Source: a virus
DNA length: 64,000 nt
Reading direction: 5' to 3' (one strand)
IMG/VR virus record: IMGVR_UViG_3300031949_000013
Coordinates: 30,012 to 94,011 of that record
The notes beneath the pieces were generated by a model. That model worked only from the letters and a program-made list of their open reading frames with translations, was not told the origin of the DNA and did no database searches. The translations under genes and the position numbers were made by a program. Position 1 is the stretch's first letter. Each line of letters opens with the position of its first letter. Shown piece after piece: positions 44,884-59,055 of the stretch.

Positions 44884-45216
44884 TGGACTCGCCGGGAATC
44901 GAACCCGGATCCGCGAGACTTCCAGCTAATCTTCGTTCACGTGCGTAGTCACCGTATCCCCGGAGACTGAGTTCTCGGGTTCGGCCGAGACCTACTTTCC
45001 GTGTACTCCTTGCTCACCTACTCGGAACTCCTCGGTGAACCAGCCCTAGTGCTTGCGCCAGTCTTGATACCAGGACGATCTCTCTAGACTGACGGCTCAG
45101 GCCGCGAGGCCGAAAGCAGTTGCGTTGTCGTTCGCAGTTGATACGACCCATTGAAGAGATGGGTGCTCTTGCACGCAGACTATCCTTCTGTTCCCACGTC
45201 GAAACCAATCGAGCCC
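44884..45216 (-). ncRNA. ssrA: tmRNA; tag peptide (A)NDNATAFGLAA at 45097-45135
   Basis: 5' GGGCTCGATTGGTTTCGAC, Ala-like acceptor with G3:U70, 3' T-arm GGTTCGATTCCC, tag ending LAA-stop. Confidence 0.95.
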
Positions 45217-45400
45217 ATGAACCACCGACCATCAACAACTTCAACGAACCTCCTGGATCAGTCAGGTTCTCCATCTCCGGTCAGTGGGTGCTGGTTGCCC
45301 AGCTCTATACGTTCACCAGACAATACGTCCGGGCCGTCATTCAGTCAACCTTCCAGGGAAGATTGATCCGGGGGTCTCCCGAACAGCCTGATCGGCAGGC

Positions 45401-45489
45401 TGGTGGCAACGAAGGGACTCGAACCCTTACGCCCGCTAAGGAGCAGCAGATTTTGAGTCTGCCTTGTCTACCAGTTCCAGCACGTTGCC
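45401..45489 (-). tRNA. tRNA-Leu(CAA)
   Basis: Cloverleaf, loop CT-CAA-AA, long variable arm, CCA. Confidence 0.92.
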
Positions 45490-45599
45490 ATTGTGCGAGT
45501 TGCTCGGTACCGAGCTTCAGGGATTGAACCCATGGGGCCAGCGACGCTGATGCTTTTCCGCTGTTTATCTCGCTACCCTACGCAGTTTCGAACCTGCGG

Positions 45600-45686
45600 T
45601 GCTGACGGCGGGAGTCGAACCCGCACGGCCTCGAAGGGCCACTAGGCTCTCAACCTAGCGTGTCTACCTAATTCCACCACGTCAGC
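45600..45686 (-). tRNA. tRNA-Leu(GAG)
   Basis: Loop TT-GAG-AG. Confidence 0.92.
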
Positions 45687-45954
45687 GGAAGACTCTCAGT
45701 TTCCTCGTGAGATATCCCCGTACCAAATAGCCAAACCATGAAAGTTTCCTTCCTCAACTCCGAACCGGTTCATTGGGATTTGCTTAAACAGCATAGCAAA
45801 AGTCCTGAAGAGCGGGTCAGAAACCATCAGGCCGGGACATCCAGTCTGGATCCTTCTCAAAAGACCCCAACCCTTTGAGTAGGTCGGAGACGGAGGAGAG
45901 TCACCCCATCTTCTAACGAAGACGCCTCTTGCGAGACTATGAGGATTTCTCCGG

Positions 45955-46040
45955 TGTCATCGGGGAGAGTCGAACTCCCACGCCCTTTACAGAGCACCTG
46001 GTTCTGAGCCAGGGTTGTCTACCAATTCCAACACGATGAC
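45955..46040 (-). tRNA. tRNA-Leu(CAG)
   Basis: Loop CT-CAG-AA. Confidence 0.92.
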
Positions 46041-46045
46041 ATTAT

Positions 46046-46211
46046 GGGAAAGAGTCGTCAGGAGCTAGGAGGAGGTTTTCCTTGGGACCGTCGCCTGTAT
46101 CCGATAGTGCCTTGAGATGGAATGGCACCTGTAGTCTGGAGCTGGCTGTGTCCGTAGGAGAGAATTGTTCGCCTCACCTCTTGCGAGGTGTCGGTTTATG
46201 GACTCTTTCCC
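46046..46211 (-). ncRNA. Unclassified structured RNA downstream of DIP1984-like gene
   Basis: Perfect 11-bp terminal stem GGGAAAGAGTC/GACTCTTTCCC with internal hairpins. Confidence 0.55.
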
Positions 46212-46252
46212 GTGAGACACTGGTTGCCCAGCAGTCCCACCTTCAACCCAGG

Positions 46253-46765
46253 TTACTCGAAGAGTCCCGGGTCCAAGTCTGCAATTTCGATCTCACGACC
46301 GTTGCCGGTGTTGATGGCCGCTCGGAAAGCACTCGCTCGCTTACTCGCTTGCTCGGCAAGCTTGGTGCTCTCCTTAACCGAAAGAGTTGCCTCGGCCCGC
46401 TCTTGCGTCGGGTCACGAGTGATCGGCATGTCCTCCATGTACCGAGACCGAGATGGGGCCGGCTTGACCGCACCCCACATCTTCTCGACCCGGCCGGCTG
46501 AGCCGACCCGCTTGATGGCTTCGGCCAGACTCATCGACTCATCACCCACCGTCACGGTGAAAGCGAGGTTGTACTTCATCTGAGCGACCTGGAGACGAGC
46601 GACGGCCAGCTCGGCCTTGAGGTACGTTTCGATGAGACTCTGCGGCGAGTCCTTCTCCTCGTCCTTGAATTTGTGGAGGCTCTCCGGGAACATCTTCTCG
46701 GCTGCACCCTTCCGCAGCTCCCACATCTTCAGTGCTTCTCGCAGTGCCCAACCTGTCGTCTTCAT
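46253..46765 (-). CDS. DIP1984/septicolysin-like helical protein
   Basis: 'LREAL', 'N....V....MSLAEAI', C-terminal 'AINTGN' resemble the DIP1984 family by eye. Confidence 0.55.
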   Translation of the reverse strand: MKTTGWALREALKMWELRKGAAEKMFPESLHKFKDEEKDSPQSLIETYLKAELAVARLQVAQMKYNLAFTVTVGDESMSLAEAIKRVGSAGRVEKMWGAVKPAPSRSRYMEDMPITRDPTQERAEATLSVKESTKLAEQASKRASAFRAAINTGNGREIEIADLDPGLFE

Positions 46766-46833
46766 GATGTCTCCCTATACACCACTCGCTTGGGTCTTGG
46801 ACATCTGAAGGCGTCGAATCTTCGGAACCAGAG

Positions 46834-46911
46834 TAGGCCGCAGTGGAGTTGGACCACTTCCGCCTGTTTATAGGACAGGTGCCAGCAACCGGCCAGCTTA
46901 GGCTACGGCCC
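46834..46911 (-). tRNA. tRNA-Ile(TAT), atypical
   Basis: Loop CC-TAT-AA (C33), T-loop TCCAACT. Confidence 0.7.
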
Positions 46912-46963
46912 GTAAAAGGCGACGTAGCCTCGTATGTTCTCTCTCATGACAACTTCCTTTCAG

Positions 46964-47047
46964 TAGCCCCGGAGGGAGTCGAACCCTCACGCTCGCAAGG
47001 AGCACCGGATTTTAAGTCCAGGGTGTCTGCCGTTCCACCACGAGGCC
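46964..47047 (-). tRNA. tRNA-Leu(TAA)
   Basis: Loop CT-TAA-AA. Confidence 0.92.
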
Positions 47048-47057
47048 ACAGATGTTG

Positions 47058-47131
47058 TAGCGGGTATGGGGATCGAACCCATCAATTCTGGTTTGTAGGA
47101 CCAGCGCTTTCTCCAGCTAGACTCACCCGCC
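47058..47131 (-). tRNA. tRNA-Val(TAC)
   Basis: Loop CC-TAC-AA (C33). Confidence 0.85.
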
Positions 47132-47133
47132 AT

Positions 47134-47397
47134 TCAATCTTCCACTCCGAACTTGAACACCTTGATGGACATGATGACAAAACCTTCAGGTATACCGAAG
47201 CTTCCTCGAAGAGCATAGGTTACCTCTGCACGGATATACCGACCCGTATAGCTCTTGTTCTCTGGAATCCACTCACCTAACTCTAAGGTGTCACCCACCT
47301 GGAAATCTCGATCGTCTTGCCGCCACTCGAAAGTCTTCCGACCGTCCCATAAGGCTTGGAACGGATCGGGCCAAGCCTTGAGCTTGTGGTTCCTCAT
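47134..47397 (-). CDS. DUF3850/ASCH-PUA domain protein
   Basis: HKLKAWPDPFQALWDGRKTFEWRQDDRDFQVGDTLEL..W...YTGR. Confidence 0.8.
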   Translation of the reverse strand: MRNHKLKAWPDPFQALWDGRKTFEWRQDDRDFQVGDTLELGEWIPENKSYTGRYIRAEVTYALRGSFGIPEGFVIMSIKVFKFGVED

Positions 47398-47405
47398 CGT
47401 AGTAG

Positions 47406-47485
47406 TGCTGGGGAAGGGATTCGAACCCTCACGCTTTTGGCGCCGCACCCTAAATGCGGTGTGTCTGCCGTTCCACCACCCCAGC
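47406..47485 (-). tRNA. tRNA-Leu(TAG)
   Basis: Loop TT-TAG-GG. Confidence 0.92.
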
Positions 47486-48019
47486 TCGTTTTCTCCGCTC
47501 TCTACCGTAAAGAGCAATCGAAGTGACTTCTGCCCAACCTTTACCACCACACCAGCCAGGTGTTTGACTATGGCAGTTTGGGCAAATGAACTCTAAGTTA
47601 GAAGGTCTGTCGTCCAGCCAATCCCGGTTCTTGTGATTGACCTGGAGCATCAGAGGCTTATCATTCCACGTGGCGTTCAAGTTACAGGCACTACACTGAT
47701 AGGGGACACCGGATTCAATCAGAGCACGTCGTAACTGGTAAGCTGCTCTCCGATTTCCAGACTCTCGTTTCACTAGAACCCTTCGCCAAGATTTCTTCTT
47801 GGGTCCACGATGATACACTCCTGAGTTGGCCGTTTGGCCTCTGAAGTGTGAAGTGTCTACACCGTATTCTCGAAGTCTTTTAGCTATGAGGGTTTGTGTG
47901 CCTCCGGCCTGACGTAGTCCAAGGATGCGCAACACACCTGCTACCGAGATGGATTGGCGTGCGGCATCCTCAAGTAATTGCTTAGTGTACACACGACGGG
48001 GTGGGTAAGGTCTTGGCAC
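47450..48019 (-). CDS. HNH homing endonuclease; its stop codon is the TAG anticodon of tRNA-Leu
   Basis: CSAC...LQVNHKN...NLEFICPNCHSQT; GTG start at 48019. Confidence 0.85.
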   Translation of the reverse strand: MPRPYPPRRVYTKQLLEDAARQSISVAGVLRILGLRQAGGTQTLIAKRLREYGVDTSHFRGQTANSGVYHRGPKKKSWRRVLVKRESGNRRAAYQLRRALIESGVPYQCSACNLNATWNDKPLMLQVNHKNRDWLDDRPSNLEFICPNCHSQTPGWCGGKGWAEVTSIALYGRERRKRAGVVERQTHRI

Positions 48020-48046
48020 TCTACAATGGCAGAGACCATAACAAGA

Positions 48047-48079
48047 AAACCGCCGCGTCTGCCATTCCGCCACTGGAGC
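48047..48079 (-). pseudogene. 5' half of a tRNA-Leu truncated at the anticodon
   Basis: GCTCCAGTGGCGGAATGGCAGACGCGGCGGTTT then unrelated sequence. Confidence 0.75.
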
Positions 48080-48083
48080 AGGG

Positions 48084-48157
48084 TACGGGACATGGGGATC
48101 GAACCCATCGATTTCCGCGTGTGAGGCGGATGGCTTCACCAGCTACACTCGTCCCGC
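48084..48157 (-). tRNA. tRNA-Val(CAC)
   Basis: Loop CT-CAC-AC. Confidence 0.85.
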
Positions 48158-48177
48158 AAAAAGAATCTCTACACCTG

Positions 48178-48246
48178 TGGCGATGAGAGGACTTGAACCT
48201 CAGCGCAAAAGCTTATGAAACTCCGCTCCCACCTTGGGACACCGCC
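48178..48246 (-). tRNA. tRNA-Met(CAT), probably elongator, short D-arm
   Basis: Loop TT-CAT-AA, GGC acceptor start. Confidence 0.7.
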
Positions 48247-48256
48247 ATTATCTTTG

Positions 48257-48330
48257 CACCCCTGGCAGGATTCGAACCTGCATCTCCTGGCTTAGAAGGC
48301 CAGAGCCCTGTCCAGTTGGACCACAGGGGC
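48257..48330 (-). tRNA. tRNA-Arg(TCT)
   Basis: Loop CT-TCT-AA. Confidence 0.9.
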
Positions 48331-48334
48331 ATGT

Positions 48335-48406
48335 TGGAGTCCCGGGAGGGAATCGGACCCTCGAAGTCGATTTTGCAGACCGACTGCCGACCCATCGAAC
48401 CGGGAC
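48335..48406 (-). tRNA. tRNA-Cys(GCA)
   Basis: Loop CT-GCA-AA, U73, CCA. Confidence 0.8.
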
Positions 48407-48601
48407 ATCTTGGTCGTTTTGGTTCGCAGACGACCTTACTGCGGCCTTCCAAGCCATCAGGCGATCCTTTGCAGGGTGCTTCGGCCGAAGTCCTGATCCC
48501 CAATGGAGAGTCCCATGTTATCCCACTTCTTGGAAGACGACGCACAATCTCTGGTAGCCCTAAGTCTCAACCCAGGGTCAGAGAACGGAGACAAGCTCCG
48601 G

Positions 48602-48672
48602 AGCAGGTAACGGGAATCGAACCCGTGTCTGGACGTTGGCAACGTCCTGCTAGACCTTCCAGCTATACCTGC
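48602..48672 (-). tRNA. tRNA-Gly(GCC)
   Basis: Loop TT-GCC-AA. Confidence 0.9.
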
Positions 48673-48875
48673 ATGCTGCACCTGAAACTAACCTCAGCAC
48701 CGAGGAATTGAACCTCGTCCCCCGGGTTACGCACCCGGTATGCTACCGGCACACTCGCACCAAGTCGAGCTTCAGGTTCCGTCCGGATTGACCTGCCCAA
48801 TGGCAGATCCGGCGGCACGGTCGCCAAGTCTTACGTCCGAAGACATTGCCGTGGAAGGCTCGACAAGGTTCACGA

Positions 48876-48950
48876 TGGAGCGGGACATGGGAATCGAACC
48901 CACCTGGATCTGCTTGGGAAGCAGATGCGGCACCTTGCCGCCTCTCCCGC
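48876..48950 (-). tRNA. tRNA-Gly(CCC)
   Basis: Loop TT-CCC-AA, CCA. Confidence 0.88.
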
Positions 48951-49127
48951 ATTGTGGTGCTTTTTCTCCGGCCAGCTTTCCATGGAAACTAACTGAAGCT
49001 TCGTGGGGTGGCCATAGCACCAAACCAAGTGCTCTGACGTGGTTCCGTAAACCCCGCGTTCGGTGCCCCTTAGCGGGCAGAACATGGTGAGCATCCCACT
49101 CTAGATTCCGAGGAACCTGTAGAATTT

Positions 49128-49239
49128 GAGACGACAAGAGGTGCCGAGAGGTGCCTCCATTAGGCGACCAGGCGAAAGTTGTCTTTGGCGCCCGGTATTG
49201 AAATCGAATCAATTGTACTCCCAAGCTGGCATTCGTCTC
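49128..49239 (-). ncRNA. Y RNA-like 1 (permuted tRNA cargo)
   Basis: GAGACGAATGCC..GGGAGTACAAT, T-like arm, closed acceptor, D-like arm, TTGTCGTCTC. Confidence 0.8.
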
Positions 49240-49241
49240 GG

Positions 49242-49313
49242 AGCGGGTAGGGGGAATCGAACCCCTCGTCGTCTGCTTGGAAGGCAGACACTCTACCATT
49301 GAGCTATACCCGC
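49242..49313 (-). tRNA. tRNA-Gly(TCC)
   Basis: Loop CT-TCC-AA. Confidence 0.92.
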
Positions 49314-49316
49314 GTG

Positions 49317-49859
49317 TCAGACTGACCACAGAAAGTGACCTAAATCTTCTGCCCAGTCCTCGGCGCCTTTGGCCGAAGGATGGATCCCATCGTTGATCAA
49401 TTTGATGCCCAATGGTTCAGCATCGTGAACCCGATCCGCACCACTCTCTCGGATACCTTTGCGAACAGCGTCGATTGGGTAACGTAACTTCGGGGGTAGA
49501 AGCCAAACAACCTGGACTTTACGTCGGTAAGCTAGTGCAACGAGACGCTTGGCTCTCTCTGGAAACTTCATTCGATTCACCGGCACGCCATGATCGTTGA
49601 CGCCCAACGAGATCAAGACCCTGTCGGGCTTGTATTGCCGGAGAGCATCCACGAACCAGTGTTCCTTAATCCACTGGTCCACGTTGGTCCCACCTCGTGC
49701 TGAGGTATGGAGCTTCTTGCCGTACTTCTTGGCAACCCGCCACAACCGAGGAGACAACATGTACGCCAGACTGTCTCCGATCAGGAGCGTCGGTCTCGAC
49801 TCAGACGCTAGAAGCCAGGGACTTATGAGACTGGCCAGAAGAAAAGCACGTCGGTTCAT
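49317..49859 (-). CDS. SGNH/GDSL hydrolase with Tat-like signal
   Basis: MNRRAFLL, IGDSLA, LGVND, DGIHP. Confidence 0.88.
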   Translation of the reverse strand: MNRRAFLLASLISPWLLASESRPTLLIGDSLAYMLSPRLWRVAKKYGKKLHTSARGGTNVDQWIKEHWFVDALRQYKPDRVLISLGVNDHGVPVNRMKFPERAKRLVALAYRRKVQVVWLLPPKLRYPIDAVRKGIRESGADRVHDAEPLGIKLINDGIHPSAKGAEDWAEDLGHFLWSV

Positions 49860-49867
49860 GTTACCGG

Positions 49868-49938
49868 AGCGGATGACGGGAATCGGACCCGTGTCCCTAA
49901 CCTGGCAAGCTAGGACTCTACCATTGAGCTACACCCGC
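49868..49938 (-). tRNA. tRNA-Gly(GCC), second copy
   Basis: Loop TT-GCC-AG. Confidence 0.85.
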
Positions 49939-49941
49939 AAG

Positions 49942-50052
49942 ACTGTGACTGACCCCTGTCGGGCTTCCGTGTATAAGACGGAGTGGGGACCATCCCCAAA
50001 CGAACACCACCAGGGCACTCGTGCCGGAATCGAACCGACTATTTATCACAGC
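49942..50052 (-). ncRNA. Circularly permuted tRNA-like RNA retaining a TAT anticodon arm
   Basis: Order: closing stem, T-arm, closed acceptor, D-arm, anticodon arm TCCGT-CTTATAC-ACGGA, closing stem. Confidence 0.6.
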
Positions 50053-50108
50053 TTCCTATTCGGTTGTCTCCACAAAGGAGTGCCGAGAGGCGAGGCCGTT
50101 CACCTCGG

Positions 50109-50179
50109 AGCCTCCAGAGAGAATCGAACTCTCGCCGGTCCCATACCAAGGGACTACTCGACCTTCGAGCTATGGAGGC
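50109..50179 (-). tRNA. tRNA-Thr(GGT)
   Basis: Loop TT-GGT-AT. Confidence 0.9.
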
Positions 50180-50303
50180 ATTGGGCAGTCTCTCCTGCTG
50201 TTACACCACTGTGGCAGGTGTCGCCCTCCGTTGTGCTGGAGACGCAGTCGAAGAAACCGGTGGTCCCACGATCCAAAAGATCGTCATCCGCTGCTTCGGC
50301 TAG

Positions 50304-50374
50304 TGGAGCCAGAGAGAATCGAACTCTCATTTCCAGCTTGCAAGGCTAGCACACTCCCGTTGTGTTATGGCCCC
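50304..50374 (-). tRNA. tRNA-Ala(TGC)
   Basis: Loop CT-TGC-AA, G3:U70. Confidence 0.92.
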
Positions 50375-50383
50375 ATGGTTGGG

Positions 50384-50459
50384 TGGTACCCCCGCTCGGA
50401 TTCGAACCGAGAAACAATCAGCTTCGAAGGCTGAAGCCTGTATCCATCAGGACGAGGGC
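50384..50459 (-). tRNA. tRNA-Arg(TCG)
   Basis: Loop CT-TCG-AA, CCA. Confidence 0.85.
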
Positions 50460-50461
50460 AT

Positions 50462-50538
50462 TGGTTGCAGGAGCCGTGTTGCACCGGCATGGCCAAGGTT
50501 ATGAGCCTTGGTTGGGAGCTAGGACTACCCTTCCTGCG
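50462..50538 (-). tRNA. tRNA-CAT, initiator-like (C1:A72), atypical D/T loops
   Basis: Loop CT-CAT-AA, CCA. Confidence 0.7.
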
Positions 50539-50539
50539 G

Positions 50540-50613
50540 CGTCTCTGGCAGGAGTCGAACCTGCATGAACCCAGCTTCGGAGGCTGGTGCCTTATCCATT
50601 AGGCCACAGAGAC
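50540..50613 (-). tRNA. tRNA-Arg(CCG)
   Basis: Loop CT-CCG-AA. Confidence 0.92.
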
Positions 50614-50964: not shown

Positions 50965-50968
50965 ATTG

Positions 50969-53063: not shown

Positions 53064-53495
53064 TTGGGCGTGGTCGTCTATCCTTCAACGACAAGCTTCC
53101 TACTCGCCATCGGCCCCTACGTGACCGACCAGGGAAAGTACGTGCTCTGGCAGGACCAGGGCCAACAGCTCTTCGGGCTTCAGCGGAGAACAAACCTGCA
53201 AGACATCCTAGCCATTCCCTTGGATGAGATCCTCTCAGAGCTTGGTCTCTTGCAATTCTGCTCAAACACCACCCAGCGAGCCTGGGTAGATACCTGGATG
53301 CGAGTCGTCGAGGCTGCTGTGACGTTGCCGGGTGTCGGCTCCTACTACTACAACCTCCTGCTAGCTCAAGCATCGGCCCATCTGACTCTCGGGGGCAACA
53401 GCAACATAGTTGCAACCCTCTCAGTCCAGGCGGGGGTAGCATCGAGCTTGAGCGGCAACAGCTCGCTTTTTGCAGATGCTACTGTGACACCCTGA
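53064..53495 (+). CDS. Hypothetical protein, antisense to the RNA operon
   Basis: 143 aa ORF filling a gap between tRNAs. Confidence 0.55.
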   Translation: MGVVVYPSTTSFLLAIGPYVTDQGKYVLWQDQGQQLFGLQRRTNLQDILAIPLDEILSELGLLQFCSNTTQRAWVDTWMRVVEAAVTLPGVGSYYYNLLLAQASAHLTLGGNSNIVATLSVQAGVASSLSGNSSLFADATVTP

Positions 53496-53570
53496 TGGTC
53501 GGAGATGCGGGGATCGAACCCGCCGACGCCGGTACCCGAAACCGGTGGCCCACCCTGAGCCTTATCTCCG
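53496..53570 (-). tRNA. tRNA-Pro(CGG)
   Basis: Loop TT-CGG-GT, CCA. Confidence 0.88.
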
Positions 53571-53572
53571 AT

Positions 53573-53646
53573 TGGTTGGGGCAGCAAGGATCGAACTTGC
53601 ATAGCGAGCTTCAAAGACTCGCGTCTTGCCATTAGACGATGCCCCA
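53573..53646 (-). tRNA. tRNA-Gln(TTG)
   Basis: Loop CT-TTG-AA, CCA. Confidence 0.9.
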
Positions 53647-53650
53647 AAAC

Positions 53651-53756
53651 GTACCAACGAGTAGTTGAGAGTCCGTGAGCACCAGCTCATACAGGCAGGA
53701 ATCGAACCTGGCCTTCCATAGGTTGGTTGGATTGTAAACCCTCAGGCATTTGGTAC
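53651..53756 (-). ncRNA. Y RNA-like 4 (T- and D-arm only)
   Basis: GTACCAAATGCCTGAGGGTTTACAAT ... CTCGTTGGTAC. Confidence 0.72.
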
Positions 53757-53784
53757 CGCCCCAGTCCGAAGACCGGGGTGAGTC

Positions 53785-53886
53785 TCACTTCGACCGCTTC
53801 TTGTTGCGGTACGCCTTTCGCCAACAAGGACGGCACATACAGGGCCGGCCGAGTAGCTCAGTGGCAATCAAACACCACCGACACAT
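53785..53886 (-). CDS. 33-aa Cys-rich basic peptide with hairpin-sequestered SD
   Basis: AAAGGAGGTGA then MCRWCLIATELLGRPCMCRPCWRKAYRNKKRSK. Confidence 0.5.
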   Translation of the reverse strand: MCRWCLIATELLGRPCMCRPCWRKAYRNKKRSK

Positions 53887-53978
53887 CAGCATCACCTCCT
53901 TTCAAGCGAGGTGAGCTACGGGGGTCTGTCCTTTCTGATAGTCATCTGTTCTCCTTGAAGTTGCTTCCGGAGAGATTG

Positions 53979-54049
53979 TTGGCGAGCAGGGACTCGAACC
54001 CCGATACCGAGAACCAGAATCTCGTGTCCTGCCATTGGACGACTCGCCA
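53979..54049 (-). tRNA. tRNA-Gln(CTG)
   Basis: Loop TT-CTG-GT. Confidence 0.9.
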
Positions 54050-54052
54050 AAT

Positions 54053-54203
54053 GTCGCGACAAGGTGTTGCAGAGACGTTCAACCCTTTCGGGACCGGTGT
54101 GTCTGCCGTTCCACCACTCACTCCGAAGAGTGAAGAGGGAGTCGAACCCTCAAGCTCTTTCGAGCGCCGGTTTGCTTATTGTAGTCCCTACTGCATTCGC
54201 GAC
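54053..54203 (-). ncRNA. Y RNA-like 5 (permuted tRNA-Leu-type cargo with variable arm)
   Basis: GTCGCGAATGCAGTAGGGACTACAAT, V-arm, T-arm, UUCG-capped acceptor, Leu-type D-arm GTGGAACGGCAGACAC, TTGTCGCGAC. Confidence 0.88.
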
Positions 54204-54205
54204 GG

Positions 54206-54289
54206 TGTCACCGAAAGGAGTCGAACCTTCACGCCCTTTTAGGACACGAGCACCTCAAGCTCGCGTGTCTGCCATTCCACCACGGTGAC
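54206..54289 (-). tRNA. tRNA-Leu(GAG), second copy
   Basis: Loop TT-GAG-GT. Confidence 0.92.
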
Positions 54290-54293
54290 GTAA

Positions 54294-54445
54294 ACCTGAT
54301 CCACTCAAAGCCCAAGGGAAGGGTAATGCAGGCAAGATAGACTTGGTGACCACCACGCTCGCACCTTCCCAGGTCGTAAGACCTGTCCGCACCCGACCAA
54401 GAAGGTTACGGAATTTACTTTCCCAGGGCTCTGAATGGATCAGGC
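54294..54445 (-). ncRNA. 6S RNA-like rod with central bubble
   Basis: ~28-bp imperfect closing stem, two-sided ~13-nt bubble, apical stem. Confidence 0.55.
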
Positions 54446-54447
54446 GG

Positions 54448-54520
54448 TACGGGACGTGGGGATCGAACCCACCTGATCTTGCTTGTCGAGCAAGTGCCGT
54501 CACCAGACGACAAGTCCCGC
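54448..54520 (-). tRNA. tRNA-Val(GAC)
   Basis: Loop TC-GAC-AA (C33). Confidence 0.85.
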
Positions 54521-54524
54521 ATGA

Positions 54525-54741
54525 TCAACCTCGACTAGAATGACCGAGACTGGCGCTCGTCACGCCTGTATGGCCGGCACATTACATCCCCACGGTGCCT
54601 TTCGACATCGTGTCCAGTTTGGATGCAGTTCGCCCCGCAGGAGATAAGTACGAGACCTATCTCCCGCCGTCGCTAACTGGATTGCTCCAGGCTCGCTACC
54701 TTAGGACCGTTATTGTAATCCCTGTCGGCATTCGAGATTGA
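54525..54741 (-). ncRNA. Y RNA-like 6 (cargo starts with 23S rRNA H69/H70 sequence)
   Basis: CTCGAATGCCGACAGGGATTACA-ATAACGGTCCTAAGGTAGCGA ... CTAGTCGAG. Confidence 0.8.
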
Positions 54742-54742
54742 T

Positions 54743-54817
54743 TGGTCAGGGCGGCGGGGATTGAACCCGCCAACGCCAGTCCCCCAGACTGGTGGCCCAC
54801 CTTGAGCCTTCGCCCTG
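54743..54817 (-). tRNA. tRNA-Pro(GGG)
   Basis: Loop CT-GGG-GG, CCA. Confidence 0.88.
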
Positions 54818-54828
54818 ATAGCTACATG

Positions 54829-54912
54829 CGGAGAACACTGGAGTCGAACCAGACACCTTTCGGTGCAATCGGTTTAGCAAACCGTTGAGCGTCCACACAC
54901 TCTTTGCTCTCC
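54829..54912 (-). tRNA. tRNA-Ser(GCT), 8/4 fold
   Basis: GGAGAGCA/TGTTCTCC acceptor, CTGG/CCAG T-stem, loop TT-GCT-AA. Confidence 0.82.
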
Positions 54913-54978
54913 ATAACCGCCCGCCTACCAGAAGTGTCCAGTGATTTCTCACTAACTGCCCCCAGTGCGCAACGGTAG

Positions 54979-55063
54979 CGGAAAACGGAGGTCTTGATCC
55001 CCAGTCCCGTAAAGGACCGCACTGCTTTCGAGGCAGGCTTGGCTCCTAGCCAATTCATTTTCC
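54979..55063 (-). tRNA. tRNA-Ser(CGA), 8/4 fold
   Basis: Loop CT-CGA-AA. Confidence 0.82.
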
Positions 55064-55067
55064 ATAG

Positions 55068-55114
55068 ACGACCTGTTCCGTTGCTCCCTTCCGGGCCTGG
55101 CGGGTACAGATCGT
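55068..55114 (-). ncRNA. ffs: Minimal SRP (4.5S) RNA domain IV
   Basis: CGCCAGGCCCGGAAGGGAGCAACGG core closed by ACGATCTGT/ACAGGTCGT. Confidence 0.78.
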
Positions 55115-55202
55115 TGGCGGAAAGCCGAGGTCTTGATCCCCATACCCTTTCAGGTACACATCGCCTTCCAAGCGAGTCTGGCCCCCGGCCAGTTGACTTT
55201 CC
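55115..55202 (-). tRNA. tRNA-Ser(GGA), 8/4 fold
   Basis: Loop TT-GGA-AG, CCA. Confidence 0.82.
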
Positions 55203-55223
55203 ATTGTTGACCCATCACTCGAT

Positions 55224-55484
55224 ATGGACTCGCTGGCCCAACGAGTAGCCAAAAGATTCTCCTTCAAGTACGTCCCGAAGGAGAAGAAGCAGCACAAGAT
55301 TGATCGGTTGATGGAGGTCATCCGAGACGCCACCGGCATATCTCGTGGCATCGCAGAGGACATCGCTGATGCTGTTGTCCGTGGACGGAATCTCGATGCC
55401 TTGAGCATTCAGAAAAACTGGCCCGTGGATGATGGGTTCTTAAAGGGACCATCGGGCCAATTATCTCTAAACGAACTAGGTTAG
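55224..55484 (+). CDS. Hypothetical protein (MDSLAQRVAKRF N-terminus), antisense to the RNA operon
   Basis: 86 aa ORF filling an inter-tRNA gap. Confidence 0.65.
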   Translation: MDSLAQRVAKRFSFKYVPKEKKQHKIDRLMEVIRDATGISRGIAEDIADAVVRGRNLDALSIQKNWPVDDGFLKGPSGQLSLNELG

Positions 55485-55502
55485 GGTCACGATGGGATTC
55501 GA

Positions 55503-55577
55503 TGGTCGGGGAGGGGAGAATCGAACTCCCAATTTCCTGTACCCAAAACAGGCGACCTACCATTGGCCTACACCCCG
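55503..55577 (-). tRNA. tRNA-Pro(TGG)
   Basis: Loop TT-TGG-GT, CCA. Confidence 0.9.
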
Positions 55578-55581
55578 ATTC

Positions 55582-55730
55582 AAGCGACGACGAGAATTGC
55601 AGAGACTCCGTTTAGGTGTCCTGACCACTAGACGACAGTGCAATGAGTCTTGTTCTGTTGCACCGCCAGGATTCGAACCTGGGTCACCCGCTTAGAAGGC
55701 GATTGTAATCCCTACTGGCATTCGTCGCTT
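55582..55730 (-). ncRNA. Y RNA-like 7 (permuted tRNA cargo retaining Arg-UCU anticodon hairpin)
   Basis: GCGACGAATGCCAGTAGGGATTACAAT-CGC CTTCTAA GCG, T-arm, acceptor, D-arm, CTCGTCGTCGC. Confidence 0.88.
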
Positions 55731-55805
55731 GGTGGCTAGGGTCGGGATCGAACCGACTACACGCGGATTTTCAATCCGCTGCTCTACCTTCTGAGCTACC
55801 TAGCC
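55730..55805 (-). tRNA. tRNA-Phe(GAA)
   Basis: Loop TT-GAA-AA, CCA. Confidence 0.93.
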
Positions 55806-56023
55806 AGATCCGGTTTTCACGTCTCCGGGCTGCACTACAGATTCGGTGGGGATGATATCGACGGGGGATGACCGGAAACCTGCCCAACCTCAGCTCCCGC
55901 TATTCTGTAGCCGCTGTGTTGAGAGACGCAAGCATCTCCAAGACCTAGGTGAAGTCGTGCCTTCCCAGGTTCAACACCTGCCCCGTGTGTAACGGACATT
56001 GAAGCCGTATGCACGAGACATCG

Positions 56024-56095
56024 AGCCCGCAGCCGGAATCGAACCGGCTTATCCGCCTTACGAGAGCGGTGCCTCACCATTTAGGCGTTACGGGC
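56024..56095 (-). tRNA. tRNA-Thr(CGT)
   Basis: Loop CT-CGT-AA. Confidence 0.9.
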
Positions 56096-56097
56096 AC

Positions 56098-56238
56098 AGC
56101 ATCGACGAGTTATGGAGGAGACCATCAACCCACCACTAACCGGGCTTCACTCCGGCCGAAGTGGATCGTCCCCCAATACCCACTACCGAAGTGATGAGCA
56201 TTGGCGGGACGATTGTAATCCCAACCGCATTCGATGCT
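56098..56238 (-). ncRNA. Y RNA-like 8 (two-hairpin non-tRNA cargo)
   Basis: AGCATCGAATGCGGTTGGGATTACAAT ... CTCGTCGATGCT. Confidence 0.8.
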
Positions 56239-56241
56239 TAG

Positions 56242-56312
56242 TGGAGATGAAGGGAATCGAACCCTTATTAGAAGACTGCCAGCCTTCCGTTCTCCCGTTG
56301 AACTACATCCCC
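56242..56312 (-). tRNA. tRNA-Ala(GGC)
   Basis: Loop CT-GGC-AG, G3:U70. Confidence 0.9.
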
Positions 56313-56316
56313 GTAG

Positions 56317-56387
56317 TGGAGTCATGGAGAATCGAACTCCAATTTCTGCGATGCGAACGCAGCGTACTCCCGTTGTACGATGACCCC
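56317..56387 (-). tRNA. tRNA-Ala(CGC)
   Basis: Loop TT-CGC-AT, G3:U70. Confidence 0.9.
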
Positions 56388-56396
56388 ATTTGCTTC

Positions 56397-56457
56397 GAGT
56401 TGACTAGGTGTTGCGAAGACTTCGTTTAGCCATTGTAATCCTCACGGCATTCAACTC
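56397..56457 (-). ncRNA. Y RNA-like 9 (minimal, stem only)
   Basis: GAGTTGAATGCCGTGAGGATTACAAT..GTCTTCGCAACACCTAGTCAACTC. Confidence 0.75.
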
Positions 56458-56464
56458 TCAGCGG

Positions 56465-56535
56465 CAGGGCTAGTAGGAGTCGAACCCACTCGGCAACGGA
56501 TTTGGAATCCGTCCGGCTACCTCAGCCTTAGCCCT
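56465..56535 (-). tRNA. tRNA-Trp(CCA)
   Basis: Loop TT-CCA-AA. Confidence 0.85.
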
Positions 56536-56952
56536 AAGTTTTACCCAACCTTGCTCGCGTGCTGTCTTTCGGCGATGGCAGTTGGCGCACCGAACCTCGC
56601 ACTTCAACATCTCTAATTGAATCTTGGCCCAGGAGTGACCGTTCATAATCATCCTAGCTATACCAGCCAACTTCTTCCCTCGAACATGATCCCAATCGAG
56701 GACTACAAGGTCATTCTCCCCGCAGTCTACACAAGATTTCCCTTGAAGGATTTCGAACACCCTCTTCCGACTCTCGTGCCTCTTGGCCAAGGTTCTCAAC
56801 CTGAACGGTTTGGGATTGTCGTAATACCCTTTCAGATTGACTTTCCGTTGGCACTGGCGGCAGATGCTCTGGCGAGTGCCCTTCTTTTTCGACCGCCAAT
56901 TGAAGTCCTTCTCCGGATCTTTCGGGTGTCTGCACTTTGGACATGTCCTCAT
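56470..56952 (-). CDS. HNH-like endonuclease reading through tRNA-Trp
   Basis: CPKC, CRQC, CVDCG...DWDHVRG...KCEVRCANCHRRKT. Confidence 0.82.
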   Translation of the reverse strand: MRTCPKCRHPKDPEKDFNWRSKKKGTRQSICRQCQRKVNLKGYYDNPKPFRLRTLAKRHESRKRVFEILQGKSCVDCGENDLVVLDWDHVRGKKLAGIARMIMNGHSWAKIQLEMLKCEVRCANCHRRKTAREQGWVKLRAKAEVAGRIPNPLPSGFDSY

Positions 56953-57176
56953 GCCTCTAAACTACCACAAGTAGTTGGAGCAACAGCCAAGAAAATTTAG
57001 CGGAACGGCAGAGCACCATTTGCCGTCCCTCATTGTATTCAGGTAGGTGACCCTATTGAGGCTAGAGTGGCGTACCTCAAACGGTGCAATTTGATCCACC
57101 ATCAGCCAGACTTTCCTGGCAGTCAACTCTCGTTACTTGTGCTAGCTGGTCCAGGCAAACCTTCACGAGTGTTTCC

Positions 57177-57252
57177 TGGTCCCTCAGGTTGGAATTGAAC
57201 CAACACCTTCTGCTCTTCAGGCAGACGCTTCCACCAGGTTAGCTTCTGAGGG
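57177..57252 (-). tRNA. tRNA-Phe(GAA), second copy
   Basis: Loop CT-GAA-GA, CCA. Confidence 0.88.
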
Positions 57253-57364
57253 TTGAGGCTGGGTTTTCGGGTTTTCACCGTGTGGTTATCCAGCAGACCA
57301 CATTCAGTGATGAGGCTCACTGCGGCCGTCAGCAGACTACTTCTTTAGCTCCGTCTGCTATGGA

Positions 57365-57438
57365 TGGTGACCCCACGGGGAATTGAACCCCGGTTCTTAC
57401 CTTGAAAGAGTAACGTCCTACCATTAGACGATGGGGCC
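57365..57438 (-). tRNA. tRNA-Glu(TTC)
   Basis: Loop CT-TTC-AA, CCA. Confidence 0.92.
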
Positions 57439-57442
57439 GAAC

Positions 57443-57511
57443 AAGTCCGACTAGGAGATGCCGAGATCTTTTTCATTTTCGGTGATTGTAATCCCGACGG
57501 CATTCGGACTC
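57443..57511 (-). ncRNA. Y RNA-like 10 (minimal)
   Basis: AGTCCGAATGCCGTCGGGATTACAAT..ATCTCGGCATCTCCTAGTCGGACT. Confidence 0.78.
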
Positions 57512-57513
57512 AG

Positions 57514-57587
<74 letters not shown>

Positions 57588-57773: not shown

Positions 57774-57845
57774 AAGGCCGACGAGGTTTCGCTGTAGAAC
57801 TTGGTTCTTTACAAGAGATTGTATTCCACAACAGCATTCGGCCTT
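57774..57845 (-). ncRNA. Y RNA-like 11 (minimal)
   Basis: AAGGCCGAATGCTGTTGTGGAATACAAT..TTCTACAGCGAAACCTCGTCGGCCTT. Confidence 0.78.
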
Positions 57846-57921
57846 GGGGTGACGTACGGGAATCGAACCCGCCATTGACCGGGTCACAGCCGGCCCCCTT
57901 CACCAGTTGGGTAACGTCACC
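57845..57921 (-). tRNA. tRNA-His(GTG)
   Basis: G-1:C73, loop CT-GTG-AC, CCA. Confidence 0.9.
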
Positions 57922-57929
57922 ATAGTTTC

Positions 57930-58080
57930 AAGCGACGACGAGGATTCGAGAGACAGCCAGTGTAGGAGCCCTTCTAAGTGCCAATCTCGTGACCGAGGTC
58001 ACGAGGCGGAATCTGCCTCCGCAAGGCTCCGGGCCTGGCTTGCCCTTGGTCGATTGTAGTCCCTCAGGCATTCGTCGCTT
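57930..58080 (-). ncRNA. Y RNA-like 12 (multibranch non-tRNA cargo)
   Basis: AAGCGACGAATGCCTGAGGGACTACAAT ... GTCTCTCGAATCCTCGTCGTCGCTT. Confidence 0.8.
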
Positions 58081-58155
58081 GGCGACCCGTGAAGGGATCG
58101 AACCTTCCACCGTCGGCTTAACAGGCCGCCGCTACACCTTGTCAGCTTACGGGTC
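58080..58155 (-). tRNA. tRNA-Asn(GTT)
   Basis: Loop CT-GTT-AA, CCA. Confidence 0.88.
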
Positions 58156-58239
58156 GTGTCGGCAAACTCGCTCATGGCAACCCAGGTCATCCCGTTGCAA
58201 GGACTTGCTGGGAGGCAACTCCACGAGGTCATCTACCGT

Positions 58240-58315
58240 TGGCTCCAGGGGCAGGAGTCGAACCTGCATGACCTTCCGTTAACAGCGGAGGCGGCTTACC
58301 TATGCCCACCCTGGA
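58240..58315 (-). tRNA. tRNA-Asn(GTT), second copy
   Basis: Loop CT-GTT-AA, CCA. Confidence 0.85.
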
Positions 58316-58487
58316 AAAACTGTGGGAACAGCCGAGAAGTGATCTTCCCGACTGTTCCCGCAGACGAGTCCAGGAGAGAAACATCACTTCCGCAGTCCCG
58401 GCCGCTGGAGCCCTTCGCTATGAAGGTCGATCACGCTCCGGCTGCTTCAGCACTCCGAAGAGTGCCTCAGTGGCGTTCCAAATCCTG

Positions 58488-58506
58488 TCGAGTTGTCAAG
58501 GACCAG
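58488..58506 (-). promoter_or_regulatory. boxA-like antitermination element
   Basis: CTGGTCCTTGACAACTCGA resembles rrn boxA (TGCTCTTTAACA / TTCTTTGAAAAC types). Confidence 0.45.
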
Positions 58507-58534
58507 AGAACCACCTGTGTGATTCTTGTTCCGG

Positions 58535-58606
58535 CTCAGGGTCTCGGGATCGAACCGAGATTCACGGCTTCAGAGACCGTTGTCTTGCCTATTGGACGAA
58601 CCCTGA
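58535..58606 (-). tRNA. tRNA-Gln(CTG), second copy
   Basis: Loop CT-CTG-AA. Confidence 0.9.
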
Positions 58607-58626
58607 ATATCTACTGCATCACTTCG

Positions 58627-58700
58627 TGGGTCTGGAGGGAGTCGAACCCTCATCTCATCGGGTAAGAGCCGAGTATGTTATCCATTGCCACCACAGACCC
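58627..58700 (-). tRNA. tRNA-Lys(CTT)
   Basis: Loop CT-CTT-AC. Confidence 0.85.
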
Positions 58701-58707
58701 GTGGGAG

Positions 58708-58778
58708 TGGGAGCACAGAGAATCGAACTCAGATCGACCGGGTAAGAACCGGCTGCTCTACCGTTGAGCTATGCTCCC
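58708..58778 (-). tRNA. tRNA-Lys(CTT), second copy
   Basis: Loop TT-CTT-AC. Confidence 0.9.
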
Positions 58779-58838
58779 CTTTCTTGTTTGAGTGCCGGTA
58801 TCACCGGCTTTCGCTTGAGCTTGATCATGATGTTCACC

Positions 58839-58913
58839 TGGTCGGGGGCACGGGGATCGAACCCGCCTCTCTCGGATTAAAAGTCCGCTGCGTCACCTTG
58901 ACGCCAACCCCCG
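58839..58913 (-). tRNA. tRNA-Lys(TTT)
   Basis: Loop CT-TTT-AA, CCA. Confidence 0.88.
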
Positions 58914-58971
58914 ATGATTGAATCGGGAGCCGGTGCGTTTGAGTTCCTTGAGAGACATCGTTCTTTCCTTG

Positions 58972-59055
58972 TGGAGCATGATGGAATCGAACCACTTAGC
59001 CGTTAGGCACCGCGTTTACAGCGCGACTGTCGTCCCAGCGACAACTTCATACTCC
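58972..59055 (-). tRNA. tRNA-Tyr(GTA), 8/4 (or 9/3) fold
   Basis: GGAGTATG/CATGCTCC acceptor, short T-stem, loop CT-GTA-AA. Confidence 0.8.

Follow-up and report, generated by a model that had tools for sequence, protein, structure and literature searches.

The stretch analysed here, which we call the window, comprises 64,000 nt and corresponds to bases 30012-94011 of the 94,011-bp IMG/VR viral record IMGVR_UViG_3300031949_000013; all coordinates given below are positions in this window. Between 44883 and 59055 the window carries an island of RNA genes, a one-strand block of 14.2 kb in which tRNA genes are accompanied by the genes for a transfer-messenger RNA (tmRNA), RNase P's RNA subunit, a miniature signal recognition particle (SRP) RNA and a series of modules that resemble Y RNAs. 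As originally predicted, all of these genes, from the tRNAs to the tmRNA and the RNase P RNA, have the same orientation: every one is on the minus strand, which also carries nearly all of the genes of the contig. The contig is a fragment of a huge phage and not cellular DNA, and it gives no sign of being a chimera. Genes for a portal protein and a large terminase subunit (identified with PHROGs) lie upstream of the window, which itself contains genes for a clamp loader, RecA, a RecD2-type helicase, a 5'-3' exonuclease, ribonucleotide reductase, an NAD ligase and a chaperonin, and the G+C content is even along the contig (0.53-0.57). The completeness estimated by CheckV is ~20%, implying a genome of ~470 kb. 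The tRNA genes of the island are listed here along with its tmRNA, RNase P RNA, SRP hairpin and protein genes (ARAGORN at default settings unless stated; bits are Rfam scores).

44883-45216, minus: tmRNA with tag ANDNATAFGLAA followed by a stop, last gene of the array; ARAGORN; RF00023, 97.2 bits
45401-45489, minus: tRNA-Leu(CAA); ARAGORN; 47.4 bits
45598-45686, minus: tRNA-Leu(GAG) copy 1; ARAGORN; 55.3 bits
45953-46040, minus: tRNA-Leu(CAG); ARAGORN; 49.2 bits
46253-46765, minus: 170-aa open reading frame (ORF) within the array; no Pfam family; absent from the relative G001
46833-46911, minus: tRNA-like gene with UAU anticodon ("Ile UAU"); ARAGORN only at relaxed threshold, with a different fold
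46963-47047, minus: tRNA-Leu(UAA); ARAGORN; 49 bits
47057-47131, minus: tRNA-Val(UAC), C33, loop CCUACAA; ARAGORN; 43.6 bits; C33 in G001 too
47134-47397, minus: gene for an 87-aa DUF3850 protein within the array; Pfam PF12961, 90 bits
47405-47485, minus: tRNA-Leu(UAG); ARAGORN; 51 bits
48081-48158, minus: tRNA-Val(CAC); ARAGORN; 39.9 bits
48177-48246, minus: second CAU tRNA (elongator Met or Ile2), weak anticodon stem; 26.9 bits, below threshold; ARAGORN ps90
48256-48330, minus: tRNA-Arg(UCU); ARAGORN; 61.9 bits
48335-48406, minus: tRNA-Cys(GCA), atypical, 3-bp D stem and 6-bp anticodon stem; ARAGORN; best Rfam match tRNA-Sec, 28.1 bits
48600-48672, minus: tRNA-Gly(GCC) copy 1; ARAGORN; 59.5 bits
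48692-48764, minus: doubtful tRNA-like gene (CGU, G33, G:U-rich acceptor), probably a pseudogene; ARAGORN ps90 only
48876-48950, minus: tRNA-Gly(CCC); ARAGORN; 35.3 bits
49240-49313, minus: tRNA-Gly(UCC); ARAGORN; 65.6 bits
49317-49859, minus: gene for a 180-aa SGNH/GDSL hydrolase within the array; Pfam PF13472
49866-49938, minus: tRNA-Gly(GCC) copy 2; ARAGORN; 58.6 bits
50107-50179, minus: tRNA-Thr(GGU); ARAGORN; 54.3 bits
50303-50374, minus: tRNA-Ala(UGC); ARAGORN; 65 bits
50384-50459, minus: tRNA-Arg(UCG); ARAGORN; 35.5 bits
50460-50537, minus: third CAU tRNA-like gene, loop CUCAUAA, non-canonical T loop, doubtful; manual parse, without ARAGORN or Rfam call; 98.7% identical in G001
50538-50613, minus: tRNA-Arg(CCG); ARAGORN; 63 bits
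50599-50865, minus: gene for an 88-aa protein with a sigma-70 region 4 domain; Pfam PF04545, 36.7 bits
50892-50964, minus: tRNA-Asp(GUC) copy 1; ARAGORN; 45.5 bits
50968-51040, minus: tRNA-Asp(GUC) copy 2; ARAGORN; 56.9 bits
51042-51384, minus: RNase P RNA, bacterial class A, full length; RF00010, 262.1 bits, model 1-367
51543-51618, minus: tRNA-Ile(GAU); ARAGORN; 65.7 bits
51622-51695, minus: tRNA-Glu(CUC) copy 1; ARAGORN; 52.4 bits
51839-51915, minus: tRNA-Arg(ACG); ARAGORN; 61.4 bits
52308-52382, minus: tRNA-Glu(CUC) copy 2; ARAGORN; 52.2 bits
52615-52690, minus: tRNA-Arg(CCU); ARAGORN; 56.4 bits
52703-52789, minus: 8/4-type tRNA-Ser(UGA), G73, CCA encoded; relaxed ARAGORN; ortholog L054:560-643, 37.4 bits under the tRNA-Sec model
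53496-53570, minus: tRNA-Pro(CGG); ARAGORN; 29.4 bits
53573-53646, minus: tRNA-Gln(UUG); ARAGORN; 60.4 bits
53978-54049, minus: tRNA-Gln(CUG) copy 1; ARAGORN; 56.2 bits
54204-54289, minus: tRNA-Leu(GAG) copy 2; ARAGORN; 49.9 bits
54448-54521, minus: tRNA-Val(GAC), regular 7/5 cloverleaf, C33, loop UCGACAA; Rfam clan match, 34.8 bits; manual parse; alignment
54743-54817, minus: tRNA-Pro(GGG); ARAGORN; 29.8 bits
54828-54912, minus: tRNA-Ser(GCU), canonical 7/5; ARAGORN; Rfam clan match, 40.5 bits
54978-55063, minus: 8/4-type tRNA-Ser(CGA); relaxed ARAGORN
55070-55112, minus: miniature SRP RNA, helix-8 hairpin with GGAA tetraloop and AGG/AGCA loop; Rfam, 29.8 bits, E 4.5e-5, local
55115-55202, minus: 8/4-type tRNA-Ser(GGA), CCA encoded; relaxed ARAGORN
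55503-55577, minus: tRNA-Pro(UGG); ARAGORN; 59.9 bits
55730-55805, minus: tRNA-Phe(GAA) copy 1; ARAGORN; 68.6 bits
56023-56095, minus: tRNA-Thr(CGU); ARAGORN; 53.1 bits
56241-56312, minus: tRNA-Ala(GGC); ARAGORN; 63.5 bits
56316-56387, minus: tRNA-Ala(CGC); ARAGORN; 57.6 bits
56463-56535, minus: tRNA-Trp(CCA); ARAGORN; 34 bits
57177-57252, minus: tRNA-Phe(GAA) copy 2; ARAGORN; 61.3 bits
57365-57438, minus: tRNA-Glu(UUC); ARAGORN; 63.4 bits
57513-57587, minus: tRNA(CAU) of initiator type, three G-C pairs closing the anticodon stem and a 1-72 mismatch; ARAGORN; 62.3 bits
57588-57661, minus: tRNA-Thr(UGU); ARAGORN; 48.7 bits
57845-57920, minus: tRNA-His(GUG); ARAGORN; 51.7 bits
58080-58155, minus: tRNA-Asn(GUU) copy 1; ARAGORN; 48.2 bits
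58240-58315, minus: tRNA-Asn(GUU) copy 2, atypical; ARAGORN; Rfam clan match, 27.1 bits
58533-58606, minus: tRNA-Gln(CUG) copy 2; ARAGORN; 51.3 bits
58626-58700, minus: tRNA-Lys(CUU) copy 1; ARAGORN; 51.6 bits
58707-58778, minus: tRNA-Lys(CUU) copy 2; ARAGORN; 65.3 bits
58839-58913, minus: tRNA-Lys(UUU); ARAGORN; 43.9 bits
58971-59055, minus: tRNA-Tyr(GUA), first gene of the array; ARAGORN; Rfam clan match, 33.8 bits

At default settings ARAGORN reports 48 tRNAs with 40 distinct anticodons, together with one tmRNA. In Rfam, 44 of the 48 pass the gathering threshold of RF00005 (29 bits) in a focused scan (42 in a scan of the whole window); for the remaining four (Ser(GCU), Tyr, Cys and copy 2 of Asn) the scores of 27-40 bits come from the related tRNA-Sec model only. 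Five anticodons are lacking from the default set, namely Ser UGA, CGA and GGA, Val GAC and Ile UAU. Once the non-canonical genes are counted, however, all 45 anticodon species are represented and the total comes to 54-56 tRNA genes, including the second CAU gene and one or two doubtful tRNA-like genes; the 55 tRNAs with 45 anticodons of the original prediction are thus reproducible, but only if non-canonical and weak genes are included. Many of the array genes are only 1-10 nt apart, and the intron mode of ARAGORN finds no extra tRNAs in the window. Position 37 is A or G in all 48 of the ARAGORN genes and position 33 is U in 47, with Val(UAC) as the exception.

The RNase P RNA is embedded among the tRNA genes, one base from copy 2 of tRNA-Asp, and scores far above the RF00010 threshold of 100 bits over the full model. 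Its P4 strands read GUCGGGG/CCCCGC as against GUCCGGG/CCCGGC in most bacteria, a compensatory pair that leaves the helix intact, and the earlier call of an RNase P RNA is thereby upheld. The same is true of the tmRNA (RF00023 threshold, 47 bits), whose acceptor stem GGGCUCG/CGAGUCC carries the G3:U70 alanine identity pair and whose tag frame ends ...LAA before the stop. Judged by their sequences, at least 44 of the tRNAs look fully functional, as do the tmRNA and the RNase P RNA.

Comparable arrays are found in other viral contigs. The relative G001 shows synteny (77-95% identity) to the 3' half of the array, and has a tmRNA 97% identical to that of the window, an RNase P RNA of 259 bits and the RNA ligase gene rtcB in the same place. 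Another relative, G005, is a 252-kb contig with ~52 tRNAs, a tmRNA, an RNase P RNA of 263 bits and Y-like modules, while G004 and G006 (the latter of 170 kb, with terminal repeats and rated complete) have shorter RNase P RNAs within tRNA arrays. Through a scan for the common P4 motif, RNase P RNAs of 108-300 bits came to light in another eight viral contigs (31-463 kb), the lowest score being that of an RNA cut by the end of the locus; seven of the eight sit among tRNAs, and in the other (L090) the nearest tRNAs found are ~10 kb off. When 12 of the viral-array RNase P RNAs are aligned, compensatory changes affect 50 of the 68 predicted pairs, and the variable pair of P4 is C-G in seven and G-C in five and is never broken. 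Such compensatory changes argue that these are maintained ribozyme genes. Some of the viral RNase P RNAs are naturally shortened to ~240-325 nt (L050 in G004, L051 in G006, L099:4462-4786, L092:4030-4350 and L059:7049-7289); in the alignment these are without a block of the specificity domain, and one reduced form scores only 46 bits. Other viral arrays also have Rfam tRNA matches spanning 206 nt (L079:6061-6266) and 128 nt (L063:1871-1998), which suggests tRNA genes with insertions, possibly introns.

With respect to the non-canonical tRNAs, an acceptor stem of 8 bp, a T stem of 4 bp, a long variable arm and G73 are common to the genes for Ser UGA, CGA and GGA; CCA is encoded in two of the three. 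This 8/4 architecture is known from both bacteria and phages (Mukai et al. 2017, PMC5389517). Between the window and G001 the Ser(UGA) gene retains its 8 acceptor pairs via changed pairs, and all three are probably working genes and not pseudogenes. The sole oddity of Val(GAC) is a C33 in an otherwise regular cloverleaf. The UAU gene has both C33 and C55 and a D region that is enlarged or contains an extra hairpin; its ortholog in G001 (L054:7262-7339, 39.2 bits) has U33, U55 and the loop CUUAUAA, and there is a compensatory pair change in the anticodon stem. By this comparison it is a conserved gene of the lineage, the window copy of which may or may not be functional. The original prediction had counted an Ile(UAU) tRNA that would bypass lysidine modification by TilS. 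A gene with this anticodon does exist, although a non-canonical one that ARAGORN detects only when relaxed, and the case for a bypass is weak, given the mutated U33 and U55, the rarity of AUA and the two further CAU genes that could be Ile2. The ortholog of the second CAU gene in G001 (98.6% identical) is a default ARAGORN call. A tRNA-like element at 49973-50084 has a perfect 7-bp acceptor stem (GGCACUC/GAGUGCC), a canonical T arm and an irregular middle, and it obtained no tool call at default settings. Altogether C33 anticodon loops occur in Val(UAC), Val(GAC) and the UAU gene, affecting two of the three tRNA-Val species, and may represent either an escape from anticodon nucleases or decay. 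Phage tRNAs have been proposed to evade nucleases through altered anticodon loops (van den Berg et al. 2023, PMC10264068), an idea that the C33 loops would fit.

The copy number of the tRNA genes follows the demand of the phage itself. When codon demand was calculated from 56 phage ORFs (21,978 codons), the eight duplicated anticodons were all within the top 11 of 45 (Mann-Whitney p = 6e-6), and this high ranking argues that the tRNA dosage is tuned to the phage. The contention that the array serves something other than codon-bias tuning is contradicted by this result. What does hold is that the set is a complete pool and not a rare-codon supplement, since it includes redundant C34 isoacceptors beside the U34 ones as well as a gene for AUA, which makes up 0.2% of phage codons. 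The match between duplicated genes and the most-used codons also favors pure translation boosting, in which the array would simply raise the tRNA supply and the processing capacity for a large, highly expressed genome, without any link to defence or to the loss of host RNA; the RNase P RNA, lying among its own substrates, would then be needed because ~55 extra precursors would saturate the host enzyme. The looseness of the link with RtcB, which is not conserved in G005, is in keeping with this. However, C34 isoacceptors beside U34 ones and an AUA gene add little decoding capacity, codon supply leaves the tmRNA, the SRP hairpin and the Y RNA modules unexplained, and C33 loops are not to be expected in tRNAs optimised for speed. 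On balance we consider boosting alone to be rather unlikely.

The SRP hairpin is 43 nt long and is placed between tRNA-Ser(GGA) and tRNA-Ser(CGA), which are separated by only 51 nt. Its sequence, CAGGCCCGGAAGGGAGCA, matches letter for letter the universal helix-8 consensus, the site for the M domain of Ffh. The original prediction of an SRP core is accordingly borne out for a helix-8 hairpin with the Ffh-site consensus, but not for a full SRP RNA. At least six other viral contigs also have the helix-8 motif within their tRNA arrays, and two of these elements reach the RF00169 threshold: one of 83 nt in L063 (42.1 bits) and one of 44 nt in L079 (40.7 bits). In a wetland relative, the Ser(CGA)-hairpin-Ser(GGA) block (54978-55203) is 98% identical, with flanks of 92-95%.

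Many of the gaps between the tRNAs are filled by twelve interleaved Y RNA-like modules, which are listed here with a further structured RNA.

57932-58078, minus: Y module Ya; Rfam search, coordinates from motif analysis
57775-57844, minus: Y module Yb, minimal; motif
57444-57510, minus: Y module Yc, minimal; motif
56397-56457, minus: Y module Yd, minimal, stem only; motif
56099-56237, minus: Y module Ye; motif
55584-55728, minus: Y module Yf; Rfam search
54528-54738, minus: Y module Yg, the largest; motif and fold
54053-54203, minus: Y module Yh; Rfam search
53651-53756, minus: Y module Yi; Rfam search
51707-51838, minus: Y module Yj; Rfam search
51396-51538, minus: Y module Yk, with tRNA-like T and D arms; YrlA, 47.6 bits, E 1e-9
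49128-49239, minus: Y module Yl; motif and fold
54290-54447, minus: structured RNA without an assigned family, originally predicted as "6S-like" (element 54294-54445)

All twelve are sub-threshold matches to YrlA (RF02553, threshold 69 bits), Yk being the best of them. The Y-stem motif is nevertheless present in 12 copies against 0.3 expected by chance, and the closing stems vary in sequence yet stay paired, a covariation of the Ro60-binding stem; the three minimal modules are bare stems. There is no gene for Ro60 (TROVE) on the 94-kb contig, but TROVE-like open frames are present in G006, G002 and, weakly, G005. A scan of viral contigs for the Y-stem pattern gave 20 loci, only three of them with tRNA arrays, the rest probably being chance matches. 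The 5' strand of every Y stem has an invariant UACAAU, one letter off the -10 promoter hexamer, and a promoter scan flagged one such site (56461-56432).

The RNA at 54290-54447 is among the most stable elements of the block (z = -7.6), and its minimum-free-energy and centroid folds coincide. Although this structure is real, its identification as a 6S RNA must be abandoned: it consists of a stalk of 25 bp, at whose end a junction bears three hairpins, instead of a long rod with a large two-sided central bubble, and neither the scan of the array (E up to 1) nor that of the gap by itself (E up to 5) gave an Rfam match, 6S or otherwise. No counterpart was found in G005 or G001, and an exact-word scan of viral contigs for the stalk gave one chance match, without tRNAs and without an alignment. 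In a search of 20 inter-gene gaps for other Rfam families nothing fell below E = 2. Four gaps without an Rfam family (52786-53043, 55203-55502, 58316-58532 and 56953-57176) are more stable than mononucleotide-shuffled controls (z = -3.7 to -5.1) and may hold further RNAs.

The bare Y stems, along with several non-canonical tRNA-like genes, raise the possibility that the island encodes decoys: the SRP hairpin, the Y-like stems, tRNA-like pseudogenes and perhaps the tmRNA would be mimics instead of functional substitutes and would absorb host Ffh, Ro60, SmpB or tRNA-targeting nucleases. The 43-nt SRP element, with its Ffh-binding tetraloop and symmetric loop and no space for a distal end, would suit this role, as would the fact that no partner proteins are encoded. 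It is difficult to reconcile with the apparently full functionality of the RNase P RNA, the tmRNA and most of the tRNAs, and the 83-nt SRP RNA above threshold in the L063 array suggests that genuine small SRP RNAs occur in such a setting. Decoys strike us as improbable.

Downstream of the array, the following genes are found on the same strand.

44025-44642, minus: HNH endonuclease gene between the array and RtcB; Pfam PF01844
42207-43787, minus: 526-aa protein with an N-terminal von Willebrand A domain; Pfam and PDB search
40621-42033, minus: RtcB RNA ligase; Pfam PF01139, 297 bits, full profile (1-426)

The rtcB gene does lie downstream and on the same strand, as predicted, but it is 2.85 kb away, and two genes and terminator-like hairpins (44019-43993 and 42200-42172) intervene; because of these RtcB, though co-oriented with the array, is probably not co-transcribed with it. 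An rtcB gene is present in three of the four relatives as well, that of G005 being ~130 kb from its array. The 526-aa protein was considered as a disguised Ro60 and rejected on its sequence, which has no TROVE match and whose PDB matches are the von Willebrand A domains of unrelated proteins. Approximately 2.5 kb beyond RtcB, again on the same strand, 37474-38076 encodes a 200-aa Rv2179c-like DEDD-type 3'-5' exoribonuclease, a candidate for the 3' trimming of the array RNAs. Several hairpins lie 3' of the tmRNA at the end of the block. The strongest terminator-like site of the region is a 16-bp G+C-rich hairpin with a T run at 58324-58359, between tRNA-Gln(CUG) and tRNA-Asn and only five tRNA genes into the array. 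A scan for sigma-70 promoters was uninformative (6 sites against 7.4 expected).

Comparison with G001 indicates that the array appears to evolve by cassette exchange. For example, the order of tRNA-Gly(CCC) and tRNA-Gly(UCC) is reversed between window positions 48600-49938 and L054:3597-4940 of G001. The ORF segments 46253-46765 and 51916-52307 are absent from G001 (502 and 299 alignment gaps, respectively) and look like mobile insertions into the array. The ORF at 51901-52290 has by eye a CxxC...H...CxxCH pattern, but it was rejected as an HNH protein, there being no Pfam match at E up to 0.01. Per-gene identity to G001 was also considered as a gauge of whether selection acts on the weak tRNAs and was set aside, since mosaic arrays with swapped Gly genes and insertions do not allow a clean comparison. 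This mosaic character is what might be expected of passenger DNA, that is, a captured and nearly neutral bacterial tRNA array with fragments of rnpB, ssrA and ffs, or else a chimeric assembly, and PMC5966550 describes tRNA array units that move among mycobacterial chromosomes, plasmids and phages. Yet many different large viral contigs contain the combination and their RNase P RNAs covary, the RNA genes are intact, their dosage fits the codon usage of the phage and not that of an arbitrary host, and the composition is uniform, with phage genes on both sides on the same strand. Moreover, a 50-kb contig from the likely source run, which is not independent of the original assembly, spans 44600-57570 without a difference. 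Passenger DNA is in our opinion very improbable.

None of the proteins that would be the partners of these RNAs was found: searches for SmpB (PF01668), RnpA (PF00825), an SRP54-type GTPase (Ffh) and TilS gave no match on the contig or on G001, G004, G005 and G006, one of which is complete. As far as can be seen, the kit is RNA-only. The explanation towards which we lean, with some reserve, is that the phage specifies its own demand-matched pool of translation RNAs, which is processed with its own RNase P ribozyme and loaded on host proteins. The island would encode a self-sufficient decoding set (45 anticodon species from ~54 genes, with a dosage matched to phage codon usage) and only the RNA subunits of three translation-linked ribonucleoproteins: the RNase P ribozyme, the tmRNA and the minimal SRP helix-8 hairpin. 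We envisage that the block is transcribed as long precursors that would be cut into units at the tRNA and tRNA-like boundaries, the 5' cuts falling to the phage RNase P RNA and its host partner, the C5 protein, and that host 3' processing and CCA addition would complete the ends, with the tmRNA, the SRP hairpin and the Y RNAs also being freed. The mature RNAs would then load on the host aminoacyl-tRNA synthetases, EF-Tu, SmpB and Ffh and on a phage or host Ro60. The resulting pool could sustain phage protein synthesis when that of the host is depleted, either by shut-off in a long infection or by tRNA-cleaving defence nucleases, and RtcB and the Y RNA modules would contribute repair and quality control. 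The cause of the failure of the host pool may be defence nucleases, phage-induced shut-off or demand alone. The original prediction favored the replacement of RNAs destroyed by host defence. This is plausible, and the completeness of the set, its restriction to RNA subunits, the nearby RtcB ligase and the C33 anticodon loops speak for it, but none of the tests that we ran shows defence nucleases to be the selective agent, and such nucleases are not known to target RNase P RNA or SRP RNA.

A number of points weigh against the phage-specified pool. Expression of the array is predicted from its sequence; RNA-library contigs of a relative cover parts of it, but such libraries can hold DNA. In run X18, an RNA library, the relative's contigs (85-95% identical) span stretches of tRNA, Y RNA and tRNA, and we have not counted them as evidence because contigs cannot show transcription, ends or strand and DNA is possibly present. 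Terminator-like hairpins within the array (58359-58324, 55285-55257 and 45889-45865) argue against a single transcript, and the block is interrupted by protein genes (those for the DUF3850, sigma-70 region 4 and SGNH hydrolase proteins and some without a family). Five of the 45 anticodons depend on non-canonical genes whose charging is only predicted, the UAU gene with its C33 and C55 among them, and per-gene identity to G001 ranges from 56 to 100%, with genes swapped or inserted. The SRP hairpin misses the RF00169 threshold of 40 bits, its 29.8 bits being for the helix-8 part of the archaeal model, and there is no space for the distal end of a 4.5S-type RNA (~100 nt in total); for these two reasons it may not be functional as an SRP RNA at all. 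Finally, the absence of partner proteins is a limited argument, since they could be encoded in the ~80% of the genome that is missing from the contig.

A broader and more tentative proposal, which we regard as possible but doubtful, is that several lineages of huge phages possess a take-over kit made up of RNA only (an RNase P ribozyme, a tmRNA, a minimal SRP RNA, Y RNAs and all tRNAs, without any partner protein), with which the translation-linked ribonucleoproteins of the host are rebuilt around phage RNAs. Here the 43-nt SRP hairpin and the like may be dominant-negative mimics that redirect host Ffh. If true, neither an RNase P ribozyme nor an SRP RNA would have a viral precedent: a full-text literature search, thin on subscription journals, found no report of a phage-encoded RNase P RNA, SRP RNA or 4.5S RNA. 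Large tRNA sets and tmRNAs in huge phages are already known, and whether they signify codon supply or defence evasion is debated; suites of translation-related RNAs have reportedly been described in such phages (Al-Shayeb et al. 2020, Nature 578:425, as cited in PMC8172020). What is new is a tRNA set as complete as that of a bacterium whose gene dosage follows phage codon use, and the presence beside it of the RNase P catalytic RNA and of a miniature SRP RNA. RNAs carried without their partner proteins predict hybrid particles of phage RNA and host protein. The recurrence in more than a dozen large viral contigs provides a comparative data set, along with naturally shortened RNase P RNAs to study, and the question of why phages carry tRNAs becomes directly testable.

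Several known systems invite comparison. Gene-rich jakobid mitochondrial genomes (PMC3590771) belong to an organelle and not a virus, and the analogy is one of logic only. The (8/4) tRNA-Ser genes of PMC5389517 resemble those found here in the 8-bp acceptor, the 4-bp T stem, the long variable arm, G73 and the location in a phage tRNA cluster, but here three such genes span the whole UCN box while tRNA-Ser(GCU) is canonical 7/5. The Mycobacterium tRNA array units (PMC5966550, PMC12803027) are likewise dense clusters of at least 30 tRNA genes on mobile DNA, for which no RNase P RNA or SRP RNA is reported; tRNA arrays have been proposed to be anti-defence, and phage tRNAs have anticodon-loop changes (PMC10264068), of which the C33 changes here would be putative counterparts. 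The rsr-yrlA-rtcBA operon of Salmonella and other bacteria (PMC4201824, PMC7790460) is similar in that the Y stem shares the conserved sequence of Rfam YrlA, some modules have a tRNA-like domain, RtcB is nearby and the relatives have Ro60-like genes. It differs in that here there are twelve modules and not one or two, interleaved with tRNAs and all below threshold, with no Ro60 on the contig. The Xanthomonas jumbo phage XacN1 (PMC5852040) is a cultured phage with 56 tRNA genes covering all 20 amino acids, but they are located in long terminal repeats and not in a single-copy island, and the part of that report available to us mentions no RNase P, SRP or Y RNA. The huge phages or megaphages with translation-related RNA suites (Lui et al. 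2021, PMC8172020) are also uncultivated and come from soil and sediment; their genomes measure several hundred kb and encode a tmRNA and dozens of tRNAs, with up to 67-74 reported. The array described here differs from theirs in that a full RNase P ribozyme, the helix-8 hairpin of an SRP RNA and 12 modules resembling Y RNAs are added.

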